Positions 4,315 to 54,215 of a DNA stretch of 64,000 nucleotides are shown one piece after another (position 1 is the stretch's first letter; each line of letters opens with the position of its first letter). A program made the translations under genes and the position numbers. The notes beneath the pieces were generated by a model. The model made no database searches. It was given only the letters and a program-made list of their open reading frames with translations, and was not told where the DNA came from. Source of the DNA: Marsupella aquatica (lineage: Eukaryota > Plantae > Marchantiophyta); contig OZ316897.1 in NCBI GenBank assembly GCA_973895155.1, positions 17,280,058 through 17,344,057 of the forward strand, given 5' to 3'.

Positions 4315-7300
4315 CTATCTGTCATCTTTCTTAGAATTCCCAGTGTTGGACAGATCCCTCCGCTCTGCGTCAATCAATTCCCTCAAATCTTCCAGGTCTA
4401 TGAGCATCGATTTCATGGCACCTGTTAGATTGTCCAAAAGCTTATCCTTTTGTACTTCCACCCAGTCCTGTATCTCAGCAGAATTCCGTATTTCCTCCAA
4501 AGTGCATTTTGGTGCCAAGTTCGCATGCCATCTCCGAAAATCGGCATTAACATCACCCAACCTGATGAAAGAACCCGAAGGTCAGACTAAATTATATTGG
4601 AAAACGCATGAAATAGTCTCTTGTCCCCAGTAGTCTGGGTAATCTGCTCCCTTCTTGAGGCTCTATAAGGCCCGGAAGAACGACCAGGCCTAGACTTTAA
4701 GCAAACACACTGTTATATTCTGGACTCAGGGGTTTACCATTACCGAGGACACATTCACGACTGTCAAAACCCTTCACGTATATGGAGACGAGTCAAAACC
4801 CTTCACATATATAAGGTGTGACAGGCGCATTATCGCAAACAAGACAGACAGCCATCACAATAGGAAAACAACTGAACTCAGTAGCTTGCAAGAGCAGATT
4901 TCACCTGTCCAGTATCTTCCGCATGTTCCTCCGTTCATTTGGATGGTAATAAACATCAACCACACCTTCCTTTCTCTGCACAATGTTGTCCACTCTACCG
5001 ACCTTTCCACAGTTTTGAAGGATTAGGTTCTCTGAAGCATTGCCGATATTTGAAAGCCTTACAACAGTCGTCAAAATTGGCTCCCCAGTGGTTATTCGAC
5101 ACCAACGCCCGCCAAGGTAAACCCTATTTGATGCTAAAGCGCTGTCTCGTGCTTCCTCAGTCTGTGTTGCCCATTTTAAGAAACAAACTGTTAGAGACAC
5201 CTAGAAGGGAACATACAGAAACATTAAAATTTTGAGACACTCGGTAAAATAAAGGAGAGCAAAGGTAGATATAGTATAATACGTTAAAATTCCCTACACA
5301 GGTTGGATCGCGGCAATTCATAAATGTTAGAAATCTACTTTCGTAAGAAATTGCTTTTCTGCAATTGTTTCCTTCAAGGATCCTTCATTATAGCAGACTG
5401 GTATCCTTCGGGAGGAAACATTAAGTTAATTTAAGGTTGGACTTTATGTGTGTCCGTGAGAAAACAAACATGACACGGTTTGACAACCGCAAGATAAAAA
5501 CAGCAATACCTTGAATTCTACATGCGCTGAGTATGTTCCCCCGTCTTCCCGTGCGAGCTCTGATCGAGAGATGCTACCATGTGCAGACAACATCTTCTCC
5601 ACTGCACTTATAGGCATGGGATACGGCAGGCCTTCAACTGCAACTAGATAAGACCCATTACTTGAGGCTTTATTCGGATTCTCGCTGCCTGTATGTGATC
5701 TAGATCTGGTAGTGGGCAAACTCCGGGCACCATTGGTAATACGAGCATCAGAATTTCTGTCAGACGTCTTGTATGTCTCCGGTTTCTTGTTATATTCTGA
5801 TGGCAGCTTGCGACCAGACCGACTCTCTGACCCAGTCCTCCTTGAACCAGAGCAGGCCTCTGTTAGGATTGTAGACCCCTTGATGAAGACTTTGTCTTTC
5901 CTAAGAGCTTTGGCTAGAGCCTCAGGTGTCTGCACACAAGGGGAAAAACAAAAGGAAAGCCACATCAAAGATCGCATCCCTCCTGTCCTTGAAAGGCACT
6001 AGATACCCCTGACGTAAGAGGATTGTATAGACTCACTCATAACCAGAAGGCCGCAGGAAAATGTCACTTGGACAGAAGTAGCAAAAACGCAAATACCAGT
6101 TACCAACACTAAACACTATTTTGGCTGTACAAATTGTGTGGAATTTCCGTACGTTTCTGCCCTTAGATCCTTTACTATGGACGGATTAACCCAACGAAAC
6201 TATTGGACCAAAGATTCCCGTGTTGAACAACAACATCATTGCCAAAGCGAAGACCATGACCACTGGATAACGAAGAGTGAAATCGACTTAGAACTACCCG
6301 TAAACTCTATAGAAGATACACATATCAAAGGCAGTAAACTTTTCCATATCTTCGAACATAGGACCCTAATTTTTCTGATTCGTGAAAACCCCACTTTTCC
6401 AACATTTCACAACTGTTGAGTTACTAGGACAAAGCCTTGAATCAGAGTTGACATAAATCTCGCTAGAAAAATGTGCGTACCAACTAGTTTCGGAAAATTC
6501 AACTACCAGGAAGATGAGATGAACGGGTGTACGAGGGACAAGTCGAAAATTCCAGAGGGAATGCATAATACAAAGCAGGCAGTCGGGAACACACGAAAGG
6601 GGAAACATCTAGCATAATAAGGAGAAAGGTGAGGTCATACCGTAAAATCTACGAAGCCATAAGTGAACTTTGGGCCCGACCCCTTGGGTACCATGGCCTG
6701 TGCCCGTACGATCTCACCACAATCATCGTAGGCTGCCCTGAGATCCGCCTCTGTGGCAGCTAGGGGCAAAAATCGAATAAATAACCCGTAGTTCTCACCT
6801 GTACTAGATTCTGATCGAGATCTTCGGCTGCGTGACCTCGTATGATTGTCTGAAACTCCCATTTGTCTAGCTTCCTTGTATGTGTAATCCAACGCCCGCT
6901 CATCATCATCGTCATCGTCATCATCGTCCTCATCATCTTCATCATCATAATCATCGTCAATCTCAGTAGATGAAATAATTTCTTCTTCCCGAGGTTCAGA
7001 CTCTCTGTCCAGCTGACCAAGGTCTCGCAGCCGTCTCCAAAGGCCTGGATCAGCCTCAACTTCTCCAGATTTGGATTTCGACGGCTCAGACCTACTCTGA
7101 GTCTCGTCATTTGTGACGTCAGTTTGTTCCCAAAGCAGAGCTTCCGAGTCAAATTTTGATGCTTCTGTAGCCTCTGCCTCCGCTAGAACCTCTTGGGACT
7201 TCCTTTCATTGTCGATGTCCTCAGCAGTACGTCCATCGGCGCCAATGGTGGCTTGAGGTTGTCCATTATTCTCCGTGTTTGGGGAGTGGTCTCCCTCCCT

Positions 7301-8476
7301 GTGGGTAGAATTCTTCTCCAACTCCTCTACTATGTGCTTGACAATTAGACGACTACCTCCTATCTCCTTGATAATTGCATTGACACTGGGCCACTTTCCT
7401 TCATGAGCTTCCTTGTGTCTGCACCCCAATACATATTGACACATAACATATTTATTGGAGAGATCTGTTTGGATAAACGAATGTACAAAAGGGATTTGCT
7501 ACAATACAATACAACACCCGCAGGTCTGGAAAGTTGGGCTTGCCAAATATATGTCATTCTTCATTGTTGGCCAAGAAAACATTGGTATATGCGATGTGAG
7601 TGAAAAGAAGCTAAGACAGTACCTCAGGACAAAGTTTTCCACAAGAGTATATCTTTCGGCCCTAGATAGCCGCGAACCCCTCTTTTGATGTAAGTCGGAA
7701 GAATCTTCTACTGCTGCCGCATGGGCGATAAATCGCACATGTCTTGCCGACGCTGGACTTTGCTGCACTGCCATTGATTTCCATCCAGTCCGGAGTTATT
7801 TACGGGCACACAAGATACGAACACAGTCATGATACGGAGATCAAAATACCTATCAGAACATAGGTGTCTGGCAAGAATTCCTCGAAAATGAAAACAGTGC
7901 AGATACCGTGAGAGGTCAGATGGTCCGATACTATTACAAAGAACTTTTTCAACAACATTTCCGTAGCTACCTCGGCTCTCCTGAGATTCAAATCAGGAAA
8001 ACGGAATCTCAAAGCTCTCTGCACTACACATAAACCTCAAACCAGACTGCAGGACTGCGAGATGGTTTAAAAGTTTTTAAAAACCCTGATCAACCCCTCC
8101 AAACATATTCTCCAATAGCTCCGATGTCTCACAAATTCAGGAGAAATAATCTAGGAAAACGGGAGCTCCAAGGGATGGAACTCTCAGAACACGTAAAACC
8201 CTCGTTGGCGGCTCCCACAAACAAAGACAATTCACCATAACGGCAGCAAACAGAGTCCAATAGCACCGAAATTGAACTGAGTCGAGCTACAAGAGAAGCA
8301 AACGAAAATTCGGCAGCCCATCCGAAATCACCACCGGCAGCCGCAGCTCACTAACCTTTGTGCTCACACGCAAGGGCGTGTTGAGACCAGGACCCGGAGA
8401 AGGCCACAGGGCTGAGAGAACAATGCAGCCTGCGCAAGCCCGAAAACCCGTGGCCCCAAGCCCGGGAGACTGCCAT
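4315..8476 (-). CDS. Putative organellar nucleic-acid-binding protein: AT3G52170-like helical domain + acidic tract + about three RRM domains (~655 aa)
   Basis: Exons 8476-8356, 7767-7623, 7418-6641, 5929-5510, 5161-4905, 4561-4315, all GT-AG, phases consistent (1968 nt). RLSRAERYTLVENFVLRHKEAHEGKWPSVNAIIKEIGGSRLIVKHIVEEL resembles the AT3G52170 domain. RNP-like motifs: LFIRFLP...TYGFVDF, VAVEGLP...SAHVEF, VVRLSNI...VVDVYY. The start codon and the first two exon boundaries are less certain. Confidence 0.75.
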
Positions 8477-9121: not shown

Positions 9122-10010
9122 TGTGGACTGCCACTCTTCCAACGAAAAGCGAAGAAAGAACACATCAGTATATTGCATTGTAAACTGAATTTTAGTCTCT
9201 TGCCATTTTTGGGGGGGGAGGGCCCTAATACATACTTTACCAATTGTTTAGTTATATTTCCTTTTTTCACCAGTCTTCAAACAGAAAGCAAAGAAAGAAC
9301 ACATTTGTATTATAATGTGGACTGCCATTCTTCAAACGAAAAGCGAAGAAAGGACACATCTGTATATTGCATTGTAAACTGAATTTTAGTCTCTTACCAT
9401 GTTTTGGGGGAGGGCCCTAATACATAATTTACCAATTCTTTAGTTCTATTCCTCCTTTTTCATCACCCATCACTTCTAACGAAAAGCGAAGAAAGAACAC
9501 ATCTGTATATTGCATTGTAATCTGAAATTTAGTCTCTTGCCTTTTTTTTGGGGGGGGGAGGGCCCTAATACAAACTTTACCAATTGTTTAGTTCTATTCC
9601 TTCTTTTCATCACCCATCACTTCTAGCAAAAAGCGAAGAAAGAACACATCTGTACTAAGATCTGACATTTACTCTCTTGAGTTGTTTTTAGAGCCCTGAT
9701 ACACACTTTACCAATTGCTTATTTTTATTCCTTTTTCTGGCCACTCTTCAAACTAAAAGCAATGAAAGAACAACCGTGTATTATGATCTGACATTCACTA
9801 TCTTGCCATTTGTTTTGGGGGCTTTGATACATATTTTAACTATTGTTTGGTTGAATTCCTTTTTTCTCACCACTTTTTTGCACCACTTTTCAAACGAAGG
9901 GCAATGAAAAGAGCAAGTGTGTATTATAATGTGAGGTTTACTATCTTGACATTTTCTTGGCCAAATACACACTTTACCAATTGTTTACTTTAATTCCTGT
10001 TTTATTCACC
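9122..10010. repeat. Degenerate tandem array, ~120-150-bp unit, ~6-7 copies
   Basis: Recurrent aacgaaaagcgaagaaagaacacatc...tattgcattgtaaactgaattttagtctcttgcc...gggccctaataca.actttaccaattgtttagtt, progressively more decayed toward 10 kb. Confidence 0.85.
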
Positions 10011-10655
10011 ACTGGTTACTTAGAATGATCCCACCATGGTCATCTTGCACCCTGTTTGAGCCATATACAGCAGTTGAAACTAAGGTGAACTACTGTTTCT
10101 GTTACCCTAATTGTTGGCACATTTTTCTCAACAAGCTGTTTTGAATCTACAGTACTTACTACCAGGTTAGCACAGCAAAAATATAATTATCTGGGCATTT
10201 GAGTCCCTAGACAGAAATTTCAAGACTGTTTTGTGAAACTTGGAAAAACAAAAACAGTGCATATTTCAGGTATATTCTTAGTATTGTTGATGTGAAACAC
10301 TGCTTTATCAAAGTAGAACTTGATATCTAGGAAAATGTGGGCTGCTGTGCTATCCTTTGAAAGGCAAAAGTATAAGGCCTTGCACATGGGATGCACTCAT
10401 GTGATAGCCTGTATAGTATTAATATTATTCTGACAATTTTCCTAACTTGCCATTTTTGGGTCCAAACACCATTTTTTAAAGTTTAACTACAGTAGTACTT
10501 TGATCATCCGTGCACCTTGTTTGAACTAGTTGAAAGTCCACTCAACCTGTGATTATCTTGCACCTCATTTGAATCAAATAGTTGAAAGTCCACTCAACCC
10601 TGACTATTCCACTCTTGCGTCTGCCCTCCACTTAGGGATGAGTCTCTTGCTATCA

Positions 10656-11182: not shown

Positions 11183-11526
11183 TGTTAGATATTGCTCTAG
11201 TCTTGTGACTCATGAGCTAATCACAATTAGGCTACCTCGAGTTAGGACCTAGCTAATGTTAGCGGTAGTGCTGTTGTGCATATAGCCAGGGCTGATGCCA
11301 GACCTTGGTGGAACTTAGGCTCATTGTTACGGAGCTAGTTGAGAGGTAGGGAGAGCTTGTGCTGTGGATGCTTGGTATGGCCGGTCGGCCTAGAATGCAG
11401 TAAAGCTCTTGTGTGTTCCCGTGGACATAGCCTCACGTGGAAGTGAACCACGTATCTCTCTATGTCGACTATTGTGCGTTGGATGGTTCATGGGCTTGCC
11501 GTTGCGAATGTCATCTATGCTCAACA
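11183..11526. mobile_element. Solo LTR (344 bp), TG...CA termini, 5-bp TSD AAAAC
   Basis: Begins TGTTAG and ends CTCAACA; AAAAC at 11178-11182 and 11527-11531. Highly similar to the reverse complement of 53860-54215. Confidence 0.9.
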
Positions 11527-12838
11527 AAAACCAGGAACTCGAGGTCAATCCTAAACCTCTTGCGACTACCCAGGCCCGATGGTTTATGCAGGGGAGAGTT
11601 GCGAGAGGGGAAGCCAGCCCAGGCAAAGGAGTCGTCGTCGGGGCTGGGATGACCGGGGTTAAGCACAACCAATTGCGCCTCACCACATGGCAGATGACCA
11701 ATGAGAGCCAATGTTGGGTTAGCCCCTGCGGTTAAGTAAACCCTACATACGAAAAGGGGGGGAGGCAGGAAGTAATTAAAATAGAATGGGGGACAGCTTA
11801 GCGATTTCAGCCATTGTGGTGGACAGGTTATTAAAAACAGGTTCTCTGAAAAGTGCCAGCCTAAGGGTTTGCGACAATTCACAAATTAAGCTCCATGAAA
11901 ACTCTCGCAAAAATTTGTGGGTTCCATGATGGTTTTCTGGGGTTGGGATTGGACACTCCCACTCCCAATGGTGGGTGGGAGCCTGGTTCCATGGCAGACC
12001 CGGGTTGTCCACTAAAATGGGTCCAATATGCTCACTCCTGTACTACATGAAATGAATACTAGTGCTTACGTAACGTTGATATTGCCACGTGCCATTCTCT
12101 GATATGTGCCAGCGAAAGGCTGAATTGCACGGAAACGAAACACTTGTCCATTTTCTGAAGCCCGGCTGCGTCAGCAGACACTTGGCATCAGATCATCAAC
12201 GGCACTCACAGTCGTACATTCCTGACTCCTGAGGTTCTTTGGTGGACTTCGATTCAGCCATTCGATGGAATTCTTGTGGGCATTCTTGGACTGGAATTTA
12301 ATGCGTCTCGATTTCTCCATGGCCGACTAAGGTTTTTGGAATTTAACCCAGAGAGAATCTTCACCATCACTTTCTCCCTCTGAACGGTTCGGATTGTTGC
12401 TGCCATTCTTCTTTCTTTCTCAAGGTTCTCAAGGTTCTGAAGGTGAGTCAGCTGTAATCAAGGATTCACTGAGTTTGGTGCTACCCCCAACGCTCGTACA
12501 TCATTGTACACTTGTAGAGTGGAGCTGAGAAGTCGCACTGACTCGAAAAATTGGAAAGCAAGCCCAGGTGTGCATGGAGCGGAGAGGCTTCTTATAGCCA
12601 GGAGCTGCTCAGGGTCCATCAGATTGTCAAGCAACTTTTCAGGACTGAGCACACTCGAACACTTTAGGCGGAGGTCTTTCAGAGTATAAGATTTGGGCTG
12701 AGATTGCAGGAACTGACTTCGGTATCTCACATAAGGATTGATTGTGTGCACTCTTTCGAGCAAAGAGAGGGGTCATCATTTATCACGCTTTTGAGGGACA
12801 AGCTCAGGTCAGGGGCGGAACCAGCACGTTGCAGCAAA

Positions 12839-14422
12839 ATGGCACAACAGATGGGGAAGTTTGCGTACACTGTGGTATATGTGAAGGATGTGGTCCAGTC
12901 CAGCGAGTTTTACAAGAAAGCTTTTGGGATACAAGTACGCCGGTTGGAACAAAATCAAAAGTATGACTTGCTTTACTTCTTTTGTTTGCATGAAGCTGCT
13001 TGGAATGATTGGATCCTCAATCTTTTCTCATCTGGATTTCTCAATATGCTCACCTTGATCGGGGGTTTCAATGTGTTCATTAGCCATCAACCTACGCCTA
13101 GTGTAATCTGTACGTTTGTTTGCAGTCTTGCCTCACGACATTGACGTAGAGTCAATAGAAGCTAGGTACTGGCATGCTCATATGAATAGAGGTCCTGTTG
13201 ACGACATTAGACGATACGCTTGCAATGCAATAGTGCTCCTGAATGCTCCTACCTAGTGTCTCTCGAGCACAACAGGTCCGATTTCAACTCCGAGATGGCA
13301 GCAGATGAACGAACCAGGATTCAAAACCTGTTGTTTATACCCAAACGTATTCTCCACAGATTGTTGAGTATGAAGTACCTAGCTCATTCCGATCGATGAG
13401 TCATGAACTTACGTTCGACTCCTTCAAGTTCGGAAAGGGTTAGAAAAGCAATATACTTTCGTTCTTCCCTTTCTTCCTTTGTTTGGTGGACCCCGTCTCC
13501 TCCACCACAACCAGTCTGGCGGACGAAGCAATAGAAAGTTTTAATCTCTTAATCGGTGGCGTTTAGTCTTCGTAGTTATGTGACAGCCAGCAATAAACCC
13601 GTGCGGCATGTTAACGACCACCAGATGGAGGATACGAGACGTTCTCAAGGCCGACCAAATTAATCATTCTTGGGTCTTTTTCGAAGTAGTGGGGACGAGA
13701 ACCTCGGTCATGAGAGTGAAAGCTGGAACAATGAGACGAGAGTCAACTGGAAAAGAGTTAGGGCTGAACTGTTGAAGTTCATTTGGTGATTCTTGCAACT
13801 ATGTATTCAGGTGGGGAGAGTTGGATTCGGGTGAGACGACCATCGCGTTTACTCCTCTGGAGCAGCACGAAACAGCCATAACCGGGGGAGTGCAGACAGC
13901 CGACCTGGGAGAGCCGAGGCACAATGTCGAGCTTTGTTTCCACTTCAACGATGTAGACGAGGCGTTCAAGGTTGGTTTCTCCTTCTCATCATTCATGTCA
14001 AGATAGTTAAATTGATCAATCAATTGGACACAATCTTAGTACAATAGACACAAGACGGGGTTTCGAATCACGACAAAATACCCATTCTAATTTTTACTCT
14101 GCCACCTTTGAATTGTGCTTGCAATGCAAACTGTGGAGTGGTACATTTCTAGTACAACGGACATAAGATGGGGTGTCTCGTTGAGTCTTGAACCCAATGT
14201 GTTCAGCCCATTAACATTACGATGTTAGCTGATGTTTTTGCAACGCATTCTGTGAAATGCTGAGAACTAACATACAGGTGAATTGTGATGGATCAGCACG
14301 CAGTGTCAGTCGGGGCAGTGCCGGTCGCTCAACCTGAGGATAAACCGTGGGGCCAGAGGGTTGGGTATGTGCGTGACATAAACGGTGTCATGGTTCGTCT
14401 AGGCAGTCCGGTTCACGAGTGA
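12839..14422 (+). CDS. VOC / glyoxalase I-like (lactoylglutathione lyase family) protein, 135 aa
   Basis: Exons 12839-12960, 13811-13970, 14297-14422 (GT-AG, 408 nt): FAYTVVYVKDV..S.EFYKKAFG...KWGELDSGETTIAFTP...ELCFHFNDVDEAFKHAVSVGAVPVAQPEDKPWGQRVGYVRDINGVMVRLGS. Confidence 0.92.
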
Positions 14423-23500: not shown

Positions 23501-23989
23501 GTAACTGCTTGAAATTTAGCTCTTCGAGCTTCGAGATATTGATCAGAATTTGTCAATCATGAGAAGCTCGACCATTTTTTCCTTCAGTAATCATTTAGGC
23601 AGTTCGATCTCTATGTATGAACTACGCGCTTTTTGGTCACGTTCAGACCTTGTGACATGGTAATTTGCTTCACATTATTTGCTATGACATAACACATTAA
23701 TTTGGAGTTGTCGATTGCAGGAGCCCTATGGCGTTTCCAGATTGAGATGCCGTCCAGGGATGACAGGACCCCTTCGTTTTGCTCTGAAAGGGTATGTTAA
23801 TTCCATGAATGTCTTGGGTAGTATGTTTCTAAGAGTAGGCTGATGAACGCATTTCCCCCCTTGCCCAACTGGACAAGGAGATTAATTTTGACGAAGTTCT
23901 TTCTGCACTAAGAAGGGCTTTGCTTTTGGTGGACATACTTTGCAACCAAAGAGATTGATTAGAAGTGTTTGTCTTGGACCTCAACGCAG

Positions 23990-26900
23990 ATGAAGATTTG
24001 TCAAAAGCACCTCTCAAATGTTTACAGCCGCTCCAAAAAGCTTTTGATCTCTGCACGTGCTGGCAAGGTGGTTCCTGAAATCACGAGTAGTGCTGCTAGA
24101 GGGTTTTCTGATGGGGGAGGAAACAATCCAAAAGACGCCCCTGGCTTGACCAAGTTTGAAAAGAACAACCTTTCTCCATATCTGGGTGCTGTGTCTGGAT
24201 TATTTGATGGACCATCTCTACTGAAGCAGTTTCAACTGAAAAGGCTTTGCGGTGGTCTGGCCGACAGAAAACTCAAAACAAGTTCACAGTCAGACTGTCC
24301 CAAATCCTGTTTTGACAGCAGTAGTAAAGATTCAGGCTCAGTGCCTTTCTTCAAGGAAAATGTCCCAGGGCCAGCTCCAACGAGCAGCACGTCAGGAACT
24401 TTCTCAACTAAGACAGATAGCACGAACAAGCATGAAGGTGACGGCTTCGTTGAGCCACCTGTCAGCAGCAACTTTCCGAGTTATGGATCCACTAGTGACG
24501 TCCTGCCGACTTCCAATGGATCTGCTTTAAGCACCATTCCAGAAGAGAAGACAAAGGCGAAAAAATTACGTAGTGATCAGCAGGTTAAGAAACTCGACAG
24601 TTTCAAGCCCAGTAACTTTAAGGTTGATGACATGGGGAAGTTGGGAAGCGTCCCCACTCACTTACCAAGTATTAGATCTGACCAGAAAGCATTGCCTAAC
24701 GTAGTCACTCCTCAATCTTCAATTCCCTCAAACAAGCAATCAAATGGATCCAATGGGAGGAAGCCTTCCCAACTGGCGTCAAGTAATGTTTCCACCAAGA
24801 ATGGTAGAAATTCGGAGCCAGAACAGAGAGCAGGTCCTTCCAAAAGACCAGGAACTGAACTGCAGGAGAAACCAATATCCACTCCTGGAGGCGGGAGGCC
24901 TTTTTCCAAATTGCCAGACATAGACACACAGCAGAAAGGAAGAGTTTCAACCCCTGCGGATTCTCAGTCTGGCACTTTTGCGTCCCGATTGCAAAAGGGG
25001 TCAAAAAACACCAACAATGTCCTACAAGCTTCTGTGGCGAAGGTGTTTGGCGCATCAGTGGGACCTCCGAAACCGTTTCAACAGATGTTGACAGCGTCAC
25101 AACTTCATGATGCCATATGTGATCATTCTACACCTGATTGTCCAAGCTTTAGAAAGAGAGATATGCCAGGGGCAGTTCCTCAAGTGCCAATTTCAGCAGT
25201 TGCGCAGTCAAGTGATCCAGTGGAGGACTCTGACCTATCATTACAAGTGGGTGCCTCGGGTACAGGTGACTTGCCTCCTTCTCATAAGGAGATCGTCGTT
25301 GCAAATGAGAAATGCTCACAATTGGCGTTTGAAGTGAAAACAGACATGAGGCGACAAGAGAAGAGCTCAGCCAACCTCTGGAAGTATGGTAGCATGGCGG
25401 TTTGCACCGAGAACCCTGGAAGAGATTACACAACTGGTGACAGCCCACCAGACGCATTGGAGGTAATTACCAAAAAGAAATTGGAAATAAGCGGATTCCA
25501 TTGGTCCAGGTCCGGGAGCCGGAAAGTTGTGAACCATGTTTCTCAGATTTTGAAGAGTAACCAGTGGGGATCAGGTGTTATTGAACAACTTGATGCTATA
25601 AAGGGAACGGTAAATACTCACTGTGTCAACGCAATACTTCAACAACAAAAAGACCCATATCTGTGCCTGGCGTTTTTCAAATGGGCTCAAAGTCAGAAGG
25701 CCTACAAGCACGATGTGTTCGCTTTTACAACGATGATTAACATTCTGGGGCGAGCTAGAAATCTGAGAGGTGTGAGGCATCTGCTGGAGGATATGCATAA
25801 AGCTGGCATCGAACCTAATGTTGCAACATACAATAGTTTGATACTGTGTTATGGCAAGGTGGAATCATTGAATGAATCTATTCGAGTGTTTCGGATCATG
25901 CAGGAAGCCGGATGCAAACCCGATAATGTTACTTACTCAATTCTCATTCATTTGTGTATAAAAGCTGGGTACTTTCAAGAGGCCTTGAAGTTATACCAAG
26001 GCATGCTTGAGGCTGGCGTCCAGCCGGACACGATCACTTACAGCATTGTAATTGATTCACTTGGTAAATCAGGCAAATTGCGAGAAGCTCGCAAGCTGTT
26101 TCGTGAGATGAAGGAACGAGGTTGTGTTCCTAATGAGTTCACGTACAACAGTATTATCCATCGCCATGCCAAGGCTCGCAAGACCCAACATGCACTGAAA
26201 CACTACACCGAAATGCGAGCCGCTGGCTTCAAACTGAATGCAGTGACTTGCACAATCATGATGGGTGTTCTGAGCAGTTTAGGTAAGTTTGACCAGGCAG
26301 AAGGTTTGTTCTCTGAAATGCAGCAATCAGGGATTGCCGCAGACAGTGCTGCCTTTAGCCTGATGATCAACATGTGGGGTAATGCTGGAAATCTTGACAA
26401 GGCCGTGAGTTGGTATGGGAGGATGCTTGGTAGCCTGGTGACTCCCAGCTTAAGCGTCTTCAGCTCGTTGGTTGATGCTCACCTCAAAGCAAATCTATAC
26501 CAATCTGCTCAGCATTTTCTTACGAGTATGGTCATGTGGGGTATCAATCCTGATCTAAAGCTATACACTATTCTTTTGCGTCACTGTATATTATGTGAGA
26601 GGCAGGAGCATGCGGATGCCGTTCTTGGCATCATGGACCGGCTAGGACACCCGGCTCACCGTTTTTTGTATGAATTGCTAACTTCACCTAACCAGGATAG
26701 ACAGTCGATTAGAGCCCGGGTAATATCATACTTCGACTCGGCTGATCAAGAAGAGCAGGACAATAAGCAGGGGTTCGCTAATGCCTTGATTGAGTTTCTT
26801 CATAAGTTGCAGTGCAAGACAGACCCAAGAGTTGTGTGGGAGACTTGCATGGAAAAAGGTGTCTTTCCATCGTCAACTGTAAGACGGGAAGAACCCAATC

Positions 26901-27229
26901 ATTGGTTGGTTGATCTCCACTCGTTTTCAGTGGGAACTGCATTGGTGGGATTACCAAAACTATTGATGATACTAAGGGACCACTGGGTCAAACATCCCAC
27001 AAAAAGGGTTTACATTGTGACTGGGTGGGGCAAGCGCAGTCGTGTCAGTGGTACTTCAGCCTTGAAGCAGGCAGTGCTTGCTGTACTTGACGCTACAAAG
27101 TCCCCATTTTCGCTTGATCATGCTAATGCGGGAGTTTTTGTCAGTTATGGATCTCCATTTTGTGACTGGATGGCTCAGCCTTTAATTATGAAGAAGTTGG
27201 GAGCTATAGCCTTAGAAGGTGTTGTGTAA
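23990..27229 (+). CDS. P-class PPR protein with C-terminal SMR domain (At1g18900/At1g74750-like), 1079 aa, single coding exon
   Basis: ATG immediately follows a CAG acceptor. About 9-10 35-aa PPR motifs (DVFAFTTMINILGRAR..., PNVATYNSLI..., PDNVTYSILI...). SMR motifs VDLHSFSVGTALV and IVTGWGKRSRVSG. The N-terminus MKICQKHLSNV resembles the MIRAKHISNL start of the Arabidopsis proteins. Confidence 0.93.
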   Translation: MKICQKHLSNVYSRSKKLLISARAGKVVPEITSSAARGFSDGGGNNPKDAPGLTKFEKNNLSPYLGAVSGLFDGPSLLKQFQLKRLCGGLADRKLKTSSQSDCPKSCFDSSSKDSGSVPFFKENVPGPAPTSSTSGTFSTKTDSTNKHEGDGFVEPPVSSNFPSYGSTSDVLPTSNGSALSTIPEEKTKAKKLRSDQQVKKLDSFKPSNFKVDDMGKLGSVPTHLPSIRSDQKALPNVVTPQSSIPSNKQSNGSNGRKPSQLASSNVSTKNGRNSEPEQRAGPSKRPGTELQEKPISTPGGGRPFSKLPDIDTQQKGRVSTPADSQSGTFASRLQKGSKNTNNVLQASVAKVFGASVGPPKPFQQMLTASQLHDAICDHSTPDCPSFRKRDMPGAVPQVPISAVAQSSDPVEDSDLSLQVGASGTGDLPPSHKEIVVANEKCSQLAFEVKTDMRRQEKSSANLWKYGSMAVCTENPGRDYTTGDSPPDALEVITKKKLEISGFHWSRSGSRKVVNHVSQILKSNQWGSGVIEQLDAIKGTVNTHCVNAILQQQKDPYLCLAFFKWAQSQKAYKHDVFAFTTMINILGRARNLRGVRHLLEDMHKAGIEPNVATYNSLILCYGKVESLNESIRVFRIMQEAGCKPDNVTYSILIHLCIKAGYFQEALKLYQGMLEAGVQPDTITYSIVIDSLGKSGKLREARKLFREMKERGCVPNEFTYNSIIHRHAKARKTQHALKHYTEMRAAGFKLNAVTCTIMMGVLSSLGKFDQAEGLFSEMQQSGIAADSAAFSLMINMWGNAGNLDKAVSWYGRMLGSLVTPSLSVFSSLVDAHLKANLYQSAQHFLTSMVMWGINPDLKLYTILLRHCILCERQEHADAVLGIMDRLGHPAHRFLYELLTSPNQDRQSIRARVISYFDSADQEEQDNKQGFANALIEFLHKLQCKTDPRVVWETCMEKGVFPSSTVRREEPNHWLVDLHSFSVGTALVGLPKLLMILRDHWVKHPTKRVYIVTGWGKRSRVSGTSALKQAVLAVLDATKSPFSLDHANAGVFVSYGSPFCDWMAQPLIMKKLGAIALEGVV

Positions 27230-31615: not shown

Positions 31616-33541
31616 TTGGTCCGTCAGCGTTCTTTCTTCGGCTCTTCGCCATCGGGCAGGAGGCCCAAAAAAGCCTCTCGCATTATTTTCTCGCCAGTTA
31701 GTTCTCGGTCAGGCACGCTCAACTTTATTTCTTCACTCGCGGGCAGGGCGTGGATGCTGCCAAGTGCCCAAGCATGCTCGGGCAGTCGGGCATCTTGTTC
31801 GTCTGCCCGAAGTCCTCGGTCCCACACGGTCAGCTTATTTTCTTTTTCACTCGCCGGCAGGAAGTGCGCGCCTGCCCAGACTCTCGCTGCTCGGGCATCA
31901 TCCTCGTTTTTCTTTCCGCTCGTCGCCGGAGGACTTGGGTGCCTGCCCGCTGCCCCAGAGACTCGGTCAATATTAGTACTATATATTATATTTCGACTTC
32001 TCGGTTACCGGTTCGCTCAAACAAATGATTTTTAGGTAGAGTAAAACTTTGGAAAACCTTCACTAAATATATTCAGAGTATTTTGAAGAAGACTGATTGA
32101 TTTATCAATGTATACATTTGAAAAATAGTAAAACAAGAAATCCAGACGACTGAGCCGGGAATTGGGCCGGGAATTGGGTGAGTGGAAGGAGCTTGGGTCG
32201 AATATACTAGATCAATTTCTCACCGTATCTATTCAAATGTAAGGAGTAAACGTCAGATTCTGGACAGGCTAAAATGGGGTCTCGCTAGATAAGAAATTCG
32301 CTAATCGAACACAAAAACGTGGCTAATTTTCGCCCCAAGTGGCGAGTGCTTTCAGTGACGTGGCAGTTGCCGCTTGACTGAGCCTGTCGCCGGGCAGGCA
32401 GGCGGGCAGACAAGGAGTTCTTTGACTTTCCGTTAACCAACCCCATGCCCGGAACGTGGCGGCTATATAGTATTGGTACTAGTATAGAATACTGATACTG
32501 TACCGTATTATATTTTACAGTTTACAGTGTACAGTAGTTTGGGCGGTAAACCTAACCGCTGCCTCCAGTTCCGTAACTGTAGAGTACAGTTACCCGTGAG
32601 AACCACCATCTGCTTCCCTCTTCTCTTCACGTCGAGAGTTCTTCGAGAGTTCTTCGAGAGTCTTGAGTCCGTGCACGCTTTTTTATAAAGCTGCTCGTCA
32701 CACTTTCGGCCTCGTCCTCAGCCATCACGACTCTCTGTCGTCAGCAGCTTCACTGTTTGGGCGAGTCTTCAAGCTTTGGAAAAGTTCCTGAGAGCTTTTC
32801 CCCAAAACGAGAAGCTGGTAGGCGCCAAGAAGGATCGTGGGTCGTCGCGTGGTGCTCTGGACTCGCCCTTGTACTTGTGCGAGGCGAATGACTCCTGGAG
32901 ACTTGTAATCGATTCCTCTCCAAACATTTCTCGTCACCCCTCTCTCTCTCGCTCTGCGTCTCCCGGAATTCCTTTGGTTTCTCGGTCTTTCTGTACATAT
33001 GTACTCGGCTTGAGACCTGAGCAGGCTAGACTGGCTTCACCAATTCATATCGTCGACCTCCCTCAGCAGAAGTAGTCGTCAGTTTATTTCGAATCGATTT
33101 GGACTCGATTGCGTCAAAGGAATGAAGCGGTGTGAATTTGTTGGTAGACGCTGAGTGTCGGGTCTTGGGCGGTTTTGTTTGTGCTTCGAATGCGTTTTCT
33201 GCTTCAATTTGGAAACGTTGGGAGTGTTGGATTAGCTGAGGACTCGGATCTTGGACGATTCTCGGTGTCTGTTTGATTGGACTTTCAAATTGGTTCGGTC
33301 GAGGCGAGAATTATGCTCTGAATCTGCAATTGACAGGGCAGAGGAGTTCCTCGGCCGCCTACAAAGATTTCTTCGTTCCGAGCGCTTGAGGATCTCGGAA
33401 TTTCATAACTCGAAGTCATAGCAGGAGGAGTCGCTCATCAAGGTTGATGGATTGACGTCGGATACAAATATCTTTCAAGCTTTGACGAACGATCAGGAGG
33501 CCGACCAGTACGTTTTCGGGAGCGCTTGTTGGCAGTGCAGA

Positions 33542-34384
33542 ATGGACGCGAAACGCGTTATCTTTGCTCTCTTTGTCGCCGGGACAGTTGTGTTGAGCAT
33601 GAGCCATCAGGTTTCGGCTAGGCGTCTCCTTAAAGGTACGCTGAGAAAAAATGGTTTCAGCACTCTGTCAAGTCTTCTTGCTAGGCTGCGTTGCCTAGCA
33701 GCCGGGGAGAATGGCAGAACTAATTACTGACATTGGGACTCATTAAATTGCAAAGCACTTTTTTCATTTTGCCGGAAGTTGCTTTGGTCGCATAACATCT
33801 TCGGAATCTCACGTTTCTCCGCTTGGTCATAACAGAAGGAACCGTTCAACTGCCCACAACCTTGGAAGATGCCAATGACGAACTGCGGGAACAAAATGGA
33901 CAGCTGGGCTCCTACAAATCAACTGAGTTTCATAACTTGGAAGAGGTAAGTAATCTACCGGCTTCTGTACCACGGGTGTCACTGTCAATAGGACGAAACA
34001 AAATGAGGATCTCACGGGGGCCAATGTTGAGTTCGAAAGTCATGTTTCTCTTTGCAAGTCTTGTTGCAAGCTCGACGCCATTTATGGTTGAGCCAATAGG
34101 TAAGAAGTCTTGAAAATCTATCAAGACTCAGAACAGAATTGGGGAAGTATTGGAGGCAATGTGAGGCCTGAAGGCGATCTTTCTTCGTGATGATGAATTT
34201 TCTTGATTCTTTTTCTCCTTTGCAGATCGACCGACTCAAATTGAGCATCAACAAGCTTATTTGCGGATCGATGGAGGAGGGTTGTGGTCATATGGATGAC
34301 GCTGAAGACCAATCAGACACCGCAGACCATTCGGCAGAGTCGTTTGCGAATCTCAACCCGCAGGATTACGTGCGGGAGTACTGA
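33542..34384 (+). CDS. Small secreted peptide precursor (120 aa), phytosulfokine-like architecture, C-terminal DYVREY
   Basis: Exons 33542-33635, 33836-33945, 34226-34384 with strong GT-AG sites and consistent phases (363 nt). Signal-peptide-like MDAKRVIFALFVAGTVVLSMSHQVSA followed by RRLL, an acidic prodomain, C-x6-C, and terminal PQDYVREY*. Confidence 0.75.
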
Positions 34385-44394: not shown

Positions 44395-50738
<6,344 letters not shown>

Positions 50739-52937
50739 TTTGTTGACCTTCCCTCGATCTCCTGGCCTGTCCTGCTCTGCTATGCTCTGCCCTGCCAGAC
50801 TCTACTTTGCTGCTTCCTCTCTGGAATGCGCTACAGAGGTGGTTCGGAATCAACGACCACACGCTGAACGAAGAAGAAGAGCATGCACAGAACAATGAAT
50901 AACAGCAAAACCTCAAAAACCTCAAGCACGCAAACGAAATCTATCCTCATCTGACGGAAACTTGTCCACACGGACTTCTGCCCTCTGTGCTGGCTGATTA
51001 GTGCAATGTCAATCTCCAGAATTCCGTTTCAGGAAGAAAACCTCGCTCATCTCTCGCCGGCTCTCTCGAAGAGAAACGCTTCAAGAATGGCTTGCGTTTT
51101 ACCTTTTCAACTTTGCTCCCGTCGGTCTGTATTGGGTAAGTCACACCTCGTTGAACGCTCAGCTCCAGATCCAATCTCCTAAGGTAACAGCCGCCCTGGA
51201 GGTCCTCCTACACATTGGAGGCTTCGTCCTTAGATCACTACAGGTACCAATCTCTCTCGAATTTCTGTGAGTTCTTCGTTCCTGCTGGAGTTCACCGGAG
51301 CTGCCTCACACCCACATTCTTGCAATACCGTTCAAGAAGTGGGAAAGATGGGAAAGGCAGATCTCTGTCATTAAGTACTGGTTGAGAGCACCATACCATC
51401 ACCCCACAAATCTGTTCAATTAGAGGTTCTGATTATTAACGCTAATGAGTGGAGAACACATGCCTCATAAAATGGACGGAGAATAAGGTTGACTCAGCAG
51501 ATTTAATTAATATAATAGTACTACAAGCCTACGAGGGCTATGAAGAAACCTGGCCGAATCAGCTTAAAGCCTATAGGGAAGAAGCAGCCACTCTACTACT
51601 GCCACATGACCGGATAGTCTCCCACTCTCCCTAGTCCCTACAGTACACGCCGTATGACTTTCTCATGCACCGATTTATTATTACAGTAGTCATCCAACTC
51701 ATTCTCCGCTGGTTCCCCTGCTTCACACCGACAGTTTAGTACCCCAGTCCAGTAATCTCACATCCAAAGTCAGACTACGCGTGTTCTCCAAGCTCATTCC
51801 TGGACAGAACTTTTGCCTCTGCTGCTGCTATTGGCCCCGTATTTCTGTATCTAGCTAACCGACCGTGAGATCGTCCCACCCTACTCAGCTATGTACTACA
51901 CTACAACTACTCCGTTCGCAATTCCCGAAGGAGTCAATCCTGGTATGGGATACCACGTCAAAACCAGAACAATGTTGAAAGAGCACCCAAACCACTAGAA
52001 TAGAAAAGTCCGTCCCCTGGTGAAGCGAGGACCAATAAAGGCTACAACAAAGGTCTAGGAACTCTAGCAAATATGCAAAACCAAGCCCAATTTCCACCTA
52101 TACGAGTCAGCGTGGACCACGCGCTCTGCAGTAGGAGCCCAATGTGACAACGTCCACCTAAAGGAGTCAATCTTGAAACTCAAAGCTCTGTAAGCCTAAC
52201 TTCAACCAAAACCAGTCAATCTTGAAACTCGGAGCTCAGCAAACTGATGAGCAGTGCTGTTGTTTTGTTTGTTTGCTGGGAATTTTCCACAAACACGTGC
52301 AAACTCTGGAAAGGCAGAGAGAGAGAGAGAGATCTACTCTTCTACGGCGCAATTGAAACTCTGTTTCGTCTTCCTGGCGATCCTCACAGTCCAACAAGAT
52401 TACAGCAAGACCAATCGAATTGCAGCTCATGCTTACGCATGTCCCCGGGCCCAAAGATGGTTGACTCTTTACAAGTGTTCACTTCAAGGCAAAAAGGTGC
52501 AGACTAAACACTAAAGAGCCCCAAGCCCAAGAGTCGAACAAGACCCATCAAAACAAATAGATTCAATTGGCAGTCATGATTACGAGATGCAGACACGGCG
52601 CGTTTCGACTACTGGAGGTCTGGAGCGGTGGAGCAGGAGATGGTAATCATTCTCTGAGCTACAGATTGCAAGAATGATGCTTTGGTGGGGTCATGGACTC
52701 AAACAGTAGACTGTTGTTACCAGAAGAGAGTTGGTTGCCTGGTTGGTATGTTGGGGAACAGCTACTACTGTAGAACATTTCTGGGTTCCCAATAATTGAC
52801 ATTATTTTTAAGTGGAAGATTTTCGTAGGCCGAACTGAACCCAGCAAAGCCGGAGACGACGCCGCATTCTCGGCACATGCGGGTCCAGAACCCGCAGTGC
52901 GAACGAGCATTAGTGGGAAACTCATTTGTTATTGCTC

Positions 52938-53385
52938 GTTGGATCCTGCACTGTTTAATTTCTAAGGTTTGTCCAGTTGTTCTTTTTTTGCCATGGTGTG
53001 AATGTCACATTGTGCAAAGGAGAAGATGCTGAGAACACCTCTATTTCTTTAGAAAAATTTCTGACCACTGGATCTCCCTAGATTTAAAGATAACCGTTGG
53101 ATTCTGGCTAATGGGTTGTGTGGCTCCGTGGAAAACTGGCTAATGGAAGACCAAATTTGTTAATTTTTGCATTGGATCCGGCACTGTTTAATTTCTATGG
53201 TTTGTTCTTTTTTTGCCATGGTGGTGAATGTCACCTTGTGCAAAGGAGAAGATGCTGAGAACATCCCTTCTCTATTTTTTTTAGATAAATTTTTTACCAT
53301 TAGATCTCCCTATATTTAAAGATAACTGTTGGATTCTGGCTAATGGGGTGTGTGGCTTGGTGGAAAACTGGCTAATGGAAGACCT
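52938..53385 (+). repeat. Two tandem copies (~230 bp) of the dispersed module also found at 18.3 kb
   Basis: ttggatcc.gcactgtttaatttcta.ggtttgt...gccatggt..gaatgtcac.ttgtgcaaaggagaagatgctgagaaca...gatctcccta.atttaaagataac.gttggattctggctaatggg...gtggaaaactggctaatggaagacc x2. Confidence 0.85.
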
Positions 53386-53859
53386 AACAAGAAAATGGCC
53401 TGGCCACTCAATGCTGTCTATATATTACTACATGGTGTCCATAGCGCATCGAAGGTGAGTACGTACAATGCTAACTACATTGAGTGAGTCCAGAGATGCA
53501 TAGAGTTGTTCATCACTGGCCTGATTACCTTGTTCTTTGAACGGAACCAGGGATGAAACAAACAAAAACAATCTTACAATTGAAATCCTTATTGTTTCCT
53601 ATCATCTTTGTTTGCATCCTTGTTACATGTATGCAATTTGAGTTATTTCGTTAGATTCCCGGTCTAGAGGCTTCACTCTAGACATTTGAATTATCCCATT
53701 AGAAAGGTCCACAATACCTGCCTAAACCTTCACTTTGAGATTGATGTGAAATCATGGTCTAGAGGCTTCACTCAAGACAGTAGCCCTGGTGACTAGGTTG
53801 AGATCAACCTTTATCAGTAAGATTGGGTGTCCAGCAAGCATAGACTAGCAGTAGTAGTC

Positions 53860-54215
53860 TGTTGAGCATAGACGACATTCGCAACGGCCGAGGCAACGGC
53901 AAGCCCATGAACCATCCAACGCACAATAGTCGACACAGAGAGATACGTGGTTCACCTCCACATGAGGCTACGTCCACGGGAACACACAAGAGCTTTACTG
54001 CACTCTAGGCCGACCAGCCATATCAAACATCCACAGCACAAGCTCTCCCTATCTCTCAACTAGCTCCGTAACAATGAGCCTAAGTTCCGCCAGGGTCTAG
54101 CATCAGCCCTGGCTATATGCACACCAGCTCTACCGCTAACATTAGCTAAGTCCTAACCAGAGTTAGACTAACTGTGGTTAGCTCATGAGTCACAAGACTA
54201 GAGCAATATTTAACA
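53860..54215. mobile_element. Solo LTR (356 bp), same family as 11183-11526 in opposite orientation, 5-bp TSD TAGTC
   Basis: TGTTGAG...TTAACA termini; TAGTC at 53855-53859 and 54216-54220. Carries an extra ~12-bp internal duplication (gcaacggc). Confidence 0.9.

Follow-up and report, generated by a model that had tools for sequence, protein, structure and literature searches.

The locus at 33542-34384 of a 64,000-nucleotide stretch of the Marsupella aquatica genome (the window, meaning the whole stretch of DNA analysed) poses the question whether a small liverwort gene encodes a tyrosine-sulfated peptide hormone akin to phytosulfokine (PSK), as an earlier note had proposed from its C-terminal DYVREY, or whether a different part of the protein carries its function.

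The gene and its surroundings

The proposed three-exon gene is well founded. Its exons join in frame across GT-AG introns into 363 nt, from an ATG at 33542 to a stop codon ending at 34384, giving a protein of 120 residues (Table 1). Splicing into three exons is predicted from these sites, and a 5' UTR with introns may occupy the interval between the TATA-like box and the ATG. An AG ending at 33838 provides an alternative acceptor for intron 1 and would give a 119-aa product; since a G>A exchange at 33838 in contigs of a related organism abolishes this second acceptor, the 120-aa model is favoured. The introns are present wherever contigs from four runs cover the gene, without spliced joints, which bears neither way on expression. 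A tblastn search of the 64-kb window with the protein returned no match beyond its own three exons.

Table 1. Features of the locus; positions are those of the window.
Feature	Position	Strand	Remarks
Candidate promoter, TATA-like box TATAAA	32684..32689	+	~860 nt 5' of ATG; putative role
Coding exon 1, with ARRLL and a predicted signal peptide (residues 1-26, to 33619)	33542..33635	+	Hydropathy, translation
Intron 1, 200 nt, GT...AG	33636..33835	+	Second acceptor 3 nt further 3'
Coding exon 2: pro-region, acidic and rapidly evolving	33836..33945	+	Final three codons (33937-33945) open the conserved core
Intron 2, 280 nt, GTAAGT ... pyrimidine tract CAG	33946..34225	+	Phase 0
Conserved core, residues 69-93 (66-68 from exon 2), candidate mature peptide	34226..34300	+	9-sequence alignment
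RxxL, residues 71-74	34232-34243	+	Within core
CGSMEEGC, Cys81-x6-Cys88, residues 81-88	34262-34285	+	
Acidic linker, residues 94-105	34301..34336	+	Sequence and length variable; alignment of relatives
C-terminal tail, residues 106-120 and stop: E-x-F-A-x-L-x-P-x-[DE]-[YH]-V	34337..34384	+	7/9 sequences
DYVREY, residues 115-120	34364-34381	+	Within C-terminal tail

Matches to liverwort proteins, relatives that are collinear with the window protein across the exon 2/3 junction, and differences that all spare exon 3 confirm at the sequence level that the gene is more than chance. In contigs of a related organism, exon 3 (159 nt) carries no difference, whereas 1193 nt of flanking sequence contain 34 (Fisher p 0.027), and in the contig over 34153-34480 all 8 differences fall outside exon 3. 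Exon 2 has at least 7 differences in 110 nt against the 0/159 of exon 3 (p 0.002), a lower bound drawn from the 40 of 142 differences listed, in a comparison whose exon 2 and exon 3 contigs possibly represent separate haplotypes. The 7 listed exon 2 differences alter 6 codons, all of them non-synonymous. As read from these alignments, exon 3 is under a purifying pattern of change.

Over 33184-33648, the 5' region and exon 1 occur once more, in diverged form, in three of the four runs. In run X1 this copy differs by 21 letters and 9 gap positions across 33322-33645 and departs from the window sequence just inside intron 1; a single exon 3 contig was found in X1, at 80%. The signal-peptide exon may have been reused by another gene, or the copy may be a partial duplicate.

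In all, 74 frames around the gene were scanned against Pfam. Between 27229 and 45008, about 50 ORFs of at least 75 aa gave no match at E 0.01, in a scan that genes of short exons would escape; no receptor or processing enzyme was therefore recognised beside the gene. Further out lie a single-ORF 1088-aa PPR protein (23963-27229, + strand), an RRM protein (5444-7498, - strand), a glyoxalase-family exon (12668-13144, + strand) and two tandem malic-enzyme genes (45008-50867, - strand), in which the N-terminal domain is found twice and pieces of the NAD-binding domain three times, one copy having a 402-aa open stretch. Local tandem and dispersed repeats occupy 9122-10013, 11183-11526 / 53860-54215 and 52924-53387, and a 356-nt inverted repeat pair of 90% identity is spaced 42 kb apart. 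The repeats of the window are probably small mobile elements.

Relatives, conserved core and C-terminal tail

A search with exon 3 gave four candidates, all four annotated liverwort proteins (E 8e-26 to 5e-5). The profile built from the first alignment recovered 6 relatives among 7995 scored proteins, and another copy from Calypogeia fissa (P0007) came from a cluster look-up. An exhaustive profile search of 1,835,955,588 representatives produced 4 matches at E <=0.001, all of the same family and one of them new (P0008), while a core-only profile retrieved 7 of 7360 candidates, each already known. The family set thus holds nine sequences from five to six species: the window protein, two from C. 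fissa, two each from Riccia fluitans and R. sorocarpa, one from Marchantia paleacea, and P0008. The latter is an unnamed relative whose entry gives a single protein of 124 aa on a contig of 1,948 nt; this points to a form of the gene, in a relative, that is spliced or lacks introns. The seven proteins from the four named liverwort species are annotated as 'hypothetical' or 'unnamed' only. No moss, hornwort or vascular-plant protein scored in the profile searches, whose thresholds a short diverged motif could miss, and no M. polymorpha protein was among the matches of the exon 3 or profile searches. The tree places the window protein together with those of C. fissa and P0008 (support 100/99, with a long-branch warning), a position that makes a leafy liverwort its probable source.

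The two C. fissa copies are 98% identical and lie on different contigs. In run X4 (organism B), window positions 33901-34078 are covered by one contig identical to the window and another with 6 differences. Allopolyploidy or a mixed sample may account for such paired near-identical copies. For R. fluitans as for R. sorocarpa, the locus numbers of the tailed and the tail-less copy are consecutive (P0002-P0005).

The literature searched, including the available parts of the supplements of PMC8462819, PMC9191895 and PMC9901580, did not describe the family; subscription papers and bioRxiv supplements were mostly outside this search. Core motifs are absent from the available parts of the PMC8462819 and PMC9901580 supplements, and in those of PMC9191895 they occur only within receptor alignments. 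In the CTNIP alignment, the Marchantia row differs from the liverwort family at its start, the part compared. Searches for family motif or accession strings led to unrelated papers only, and receptors for PSK in liverworts are not dealt with in the accessible text of PMC10834447 and PMC11756074. The gene may appear, uncommented, in catalogues of Marchantia small peptides. The family appears to be new, an undescribed group within secreted peptide precursors.

The overall architecture claimed in the earlier note is recovered. Residues 6-18 are hydrophobic on the Kyte-Doolittle scale, with a nine-residue mean of up to 2.6 at residues 10-18, and relatives have an equivalent hydrophobic N-terminus; ARRLL follows at residues 26-30. 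Small residues at -3 and -1 point to a putative signal peptide cleavage site after Ala26. The pro-region is acidic and variable, as had been stated, with 3-15 of 35-40 residues identical to relatives; Asp makes up 10% of the post-signal residues of the window protein. Its length shifts by about 30 residues, and its sequence is exchanged entirely from leafy to thalloid liverworts. An extra pro-segment is conserved in Riccia and Marchantia and absent from the leafy-liverwort-type proteins. By hydropathy and composition, the protein has the layout of PSK precursors (an N-terminal signal and an acidic pro-region within about 80-120 aa) as well as the general one of secreted precursors, with a signal region, a variable pro-region and a short conserved C-terminal block.

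This block contains the Cys pair of the earlier note, in which the spacing of 6 is kept in 9/9 sequences and both Cys are invariant. Thirteen core positions are invariant in 9/9 (L66, E68, I69, D70, R71, L72, L74, I76, N77, C81, G87, C88 and D93), and in pairwise comparison 19-28 of the 28 residues 66-93 are identical to relatives: 28/28 in C. fissa, 22-23/28 in the other four tailed relatives, and 23/28 and 19/28 in the two tail-less Riccia paralogs. As these paralogs retain the core without the tail, the core can persist where the DY region is missing. Averaged over seven relatives (P0007 was set aside as 98% identical to P0001), identity stands at 0.81 over residues 66-94, 0.35 across the signal region, 0.18 across the pro-region and 0.31 across the linker; along the tail it declines from 0.55 (106-113) through 0.40 (114-118) to 0.29 in the last two residues. 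The tailed Riccia and Marchantia proteins share 22-23/28 core residues with the window protein, as opposed to 4-7/40 in the pro-region.

AlphaFold models the core as a helix at pLDDT ~50-65, in a model with a mean pLDDT of 58.8 and a pTM of 0.23. The invariant residues, both polar and hydrophobic, are distributed all along this helix, which suggests a partner-binding surface. The hydrophobic moment of the helix does not exceed that of shuffled sequences (1102 of 10000 reach it). A homodimer prediction for P0001 residues 52-92, made with the alignment unused, scored 0.06 against a mark of 0.32 and speaks neither for nor against a dimer. A PDB sequence search with the core profile gave 0 matches at E 10. 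The full profile had five weak PDB matches (E 0.78-1.2), which we judged to be chance, and the Pfam matches HTH_CHD6-9, Helicase_dom4_arc and Tad (E 0.028-0.3) were rejected as below the cut-off. The best ESM Atlas feature matches, to be taken as leads only, were two unnamed streptophyte clusters (0.86 and 0.84) and Organ_specific (0.82); for the C-terminal part, the Atlas offered no usable named match, its structure rows being short and below the bar. A metagenome scan left one locus of 394 pattern matches (L001:3094-3198), which had been picked by the search pattern and was rejected as chance. It is a stretch of a 626-aa bacterial protein that resembles the core, including residues around the second Cys, and that reads like a chemotaxis receptor.

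DYVREY indeed forms residues 115-120 of the window protein, but it is not a family trait. Asp-Tyr occurs in 2/9 sequences (the window protein and one R. fluitans protein), Glu-Tyr in 4/9 (both C. fissa copies, R. sorocarpa and M. paleacea) and Asp-His in 1/9 (P0008); the remaining two have no tail. Even the closest relative, C. fissa with its 28/28 core, has Glu-Tyr. The ending YVREY is limited to the window protein and the two C. fissa copies, and the Riccia and Marchantia tails continue with different, longer residues after YV[RK]. With the pair in 2/9 and the ending so restricted, a sulfated pentapeptide YVREY as the product is unsupported. The tail as a whole fares better. Among the seven sequences that carry it, E106, F108, A109, L111 and V117 are found in 7/7, P113 and Y116 in 6/7, D115 in 3/7 and the D-Y pair in 2/7, and the residue preceding Tyr or His is acidic in all seven. 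Tail-bearing relatives share 7-13 of 15 tail residues with the window protein versus 4-15 of 35-40 in the pro-region. The terminal DY is thus largely unconserved, the outcome that the earlier note had named as speaking against its proposal, yet the tail overall is better conserved than the pro-region. Some constraint acts on it, and it could be a second, moderately conserved element (7/9); the DY tail is probably not the signal. Tyr116 may be sulfated in this species, though we consider this doubtful and it would be no family trait.

Comparison with known peptide families

PSK precursors resemble the liverwort proteins in size (about 80-120 aa) and in having a signal peptide and an acidic stretch; in both, EE stands ahead of the second of two Cys, and Tyr-aliphatic is found with an acidic residue near the C-terminus. 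Four real precursors from a published supplement served as reference; these have a Cys spacing of 7-8, EE[ED]C and 10 residues to DY. The liverwort proteins, in contrast, are of the EEGC type with a spacing of 6, have a ring-to-tyrosine gap of 20-26 and lack an RRTL-x-AH-type segment (both regexes 0/9). The expression DY[IV]Y[TS][QH] also matches 0/9, YIYTQ is missing, and the best conserved stretch lies upstream of the ring rather than at the tyrosine. No Pfam PSK family was found at E up to 10 in the nine members and the three window exons, in a search where HMMER filters hide most matches above E ~0.1; the Pfam library presumably includes a PSK model. Without YIYTQ or a Pfam PSK match, and with a Cys spacing of 6 instead of 7-8, the PSK-likeness claimed for the protein is unsupported. 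Remote homology to PSK is possible, as the two have so far been set apart by motif patterns and Pfam.

The published bryophyte PSK candidates are themselves atypical. By its motifs, the Marchantia candidate Mp3g14960 resembles an alpha/beta hydrolase. It and Pp3c7_6940 of Physcomitrium are 257 aa and ~180 aa long (PMC8462819); in both, YIYT lies internally and a signal peptide is not evident. A 2026 survey reports no PSK in non-vascular plants (PMC13091385).

The mature RALF peptide contains four Cys, whereas the liverwort proteins have two after the signal region in 9/9 and a C-terminal part that is acidic, not basic; no Pfam RALF match was obtained for the nine members. RALF precursors are alike in that an acidic stretch is followed by an RxxL-type site (S1P/SBT6.1) just upstream of a Cys-containing C-terminal peptide (PMC13082318). 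Among the RGF/GLV/CLEL, PSY and CIF peptides, liverworts are reported to retain one DY peptide, MpRGF, which is highly conserved (PMC8329595). These peptides, however, start with DY and comprise 13-20 residues with conserved Pro, His or Asn (PMC11534595, PMC8329595), while in the liverwort family the sequence ends 4-5 residues after the Tyr, and D-Y is unconserved (2/9).

The closest model for how the liverwort proteins might work is found in the CTNIP/SCREW phytocytokines, which are reported as ligands of HSL3/NUT with BAK1 (PMC13261660, PMC9191895). They too derive from a small precursor with a signal peptide, a variable middle and a conserved C-terminal two-Cys region, and their active unit is given as about 23 residues with one disulfide (PMC13261660, PMC9191895). 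Membership is another matter. The C.N.P motif is present in 0/9 liverwort proteins and the Cys spacing is 6 versus 9-11 (by the criterion given in PMC9191895), the liverwort core is an acidic helix as against a Pro/Gly-rich, IDA-like N-terminal part, and CTNIPs are reported from angiosperms, whereas the liverwort family was found only in liverworts.

A candidate disulfide peptide ligand and its alternatives

We propose, with a probability of about 0.5, that the gene is one of a liverwort family whose secreted precursors likely give rise to a peptide ligand closed by a single disulfide, acting in the manner of CTNIP/SCREW without belonging to that family. The starting point is an open three-exon frame with a hydrophobic N-terminus, conservation concentrated at residues 66-93 and two invariant Cys. 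The precursor would enter the secretory pathway and lose its signal peptide after Ala26, and a Cys81-Cys88 disulfide would close an 8-residue ring behind the helix. Subtilases could then release a peptide of about 19-28 residues (71-93 gives 23) by cutting at RxxL (71-74) and/or at Asp70 and Asp93. Plant subtilases are documented to cleave at RxxL and at Asp (PMC13082318), and a 23-residue single-disulfide peptide is a proven type of LRR receptor kinase ligand, as reported for CTNIP/SCREW (PMC13261660, PMC9191895). By analogy, an LRR receptor kinase with a SERK co-receptor would perceive the peptide, perhaps as a developmental or stress cue in the gametophyte, and the tail would be a second, dispensable element. 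That the family is a new, liverwort-only class of peptide hormone, in which a helix and an 8-residue disulfide ring, hardly altered from leafy to complex thalloid liverworts, together form the ligand of an orphan LRR receptor kinase, we rate slightly short of even odds. Of the earlier claim of a peptide-hormone precursor, the real gene and the secreted-precursor layout would thus stand, and the PSK-like identity and the YVREY product would fall away.

The conservation profile, typical of peptide precursors, supports the disulfide ligand. On the other hand, conservation alone is no proof of signalling, and a small protein acting whole would look alike. Pro-regions are conserved in places (P0002 and P0006 share 25/62 residues, and within Riccia 52-61 of 68-69 are identical), which in Riccia and Marchantia appears to exceed what would be expected of a throw-away spacer. 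Since the invariant block spans RxxL, a cut there would leave part of the block outside the peptide. A tail kept in 7/9 sequences is likewise unaccounted for by a ligand confined to the core. The core is also very acidic, in contrast to Pro/Gly-rich ligands of the CTNIP/IDA type, and its helix is weakly predicted. The tail-less Riccia paralogs could stem from faulty annotation or be copies in decay; among them P0005 has changed most in the core.

The like-looking alternative, a small secreted or vacuolar protein that acts whole in protease inhibition, binding or defence, is unlikely but would not greatly surprise us. It would fit a conserved block as long as 28 aa that is helical in the model, and the extra conserved pro-segment common to Riccia and Marchantia. 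C-terminal vacuolar propeptides act as sorting elements, and the invariant tail residues, mostly hydrophobic (F, A, L, V) and not Tyr, would suit a sorting or packing role. However, no compact fold is predicted (pTM 0.23), neither Pfam at significance nor the PDB at E 10 (core profile) contains a match, and the pro-region varies in length by some 30 residues and is exchanged wholesale between leafy and thalloid liverworts. At the other extreme, a pseudogene or an unexpressed chance ORF is hardly credible: although the exons are short and the model is built on sequence and homology, frame and splice sites are intact, four named liverwort species have annotated relatives, exon 3 shows the purifying pattern, and P0008 is recorded as one protein of 124 aa.

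Two further explanations give the tail the leading or an equal part. In the one closest to the original proposal, TPST would sulfate Tyr116 (and Tyr120), an Asp-specific subtilase would cut after Asp115, and YVREY would be a PSK-like hormone. The window DY lies five residues from the end in an acidic setting with a second Tyr, both C. fissa copies share the pentapeptide, exon 3 is unchanged in the related organism, and liverworts are reported to possess TPST (PMC8462819). We nevertheless hold this to be very improbable. Plant TPST reportedly requires Asp directly before Tyr, with GLV9 as the only Glu-Tyr example, a weak and unproven one; the mature PSK sequence is said to be fully conserved across species (PMC6698702); here Asp-Tyr is found in 2/9, the closest relative has Glu-Tyr and P0008 Asp-His, two paralogs lack the tail, and the Riccia and Marchantia endings differ and run longer past YV[RK]. 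With Asp at 10% of post-signal residues, a chance DY is also cheap. The other explanation, a diverged proPSK relative in which a longer tail peptide, sulfated where it has Tyr, and the Cys ring both act, is somewhat less far-fetched, though still improbable. Its parts stand in the same order as in real PSK precursors, the seven tails share five invariant residues (E106, F108, A109, L111, V117) and an acidic residue before Tyr or His, the place of a liverwort PSK counterpart is in effect vacant, and one PSK precursor is reported to give a second active peptide (PMC13755522). What argues against it is the lack of any Pfam PSK match in the nine members and the window exons, PSK motifs in 0/9, a family profile that scored no PSK precursor, the differing Cys spacing (6 versus 7-8) and ring-to-tyrosine gap (20-26 versus 10), and an invariant pre-ring helix without visible counterpart in the four PSK precursors. 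A bolder variant, in which the family is the missing liverwort proPSK counterpart, its Cys loop the ancestral signal and the sulfated pentapeptide a later product of the tail, we regard as quite improbable.

Should the protein be an ordinary small secreted one, its interest would be low. If the disulfide ligand holds, its place in the field would be an open one. Liverwort peptide signals have been found mostly through relatives of flowering-plant families, lineage-specific ligands are largely unexplored, and few single-disulfide signalling peptides of plants are reported as characterised (PMC13261660). Because the published candidates are unlike secreted precursors, the family also asks whether liverworts hold a true PSK. 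The neighbouring tailed and tail-less Riccia copies form a natural experiment on what the tail does. With copies in Marchantia paleacea and in tandem in Riccia, a defined, synthesisable peptide of 20-28 residues and a knockable gene are at hand in tractable liverworts, which would offer a direct route to pairing an orphan receptor.
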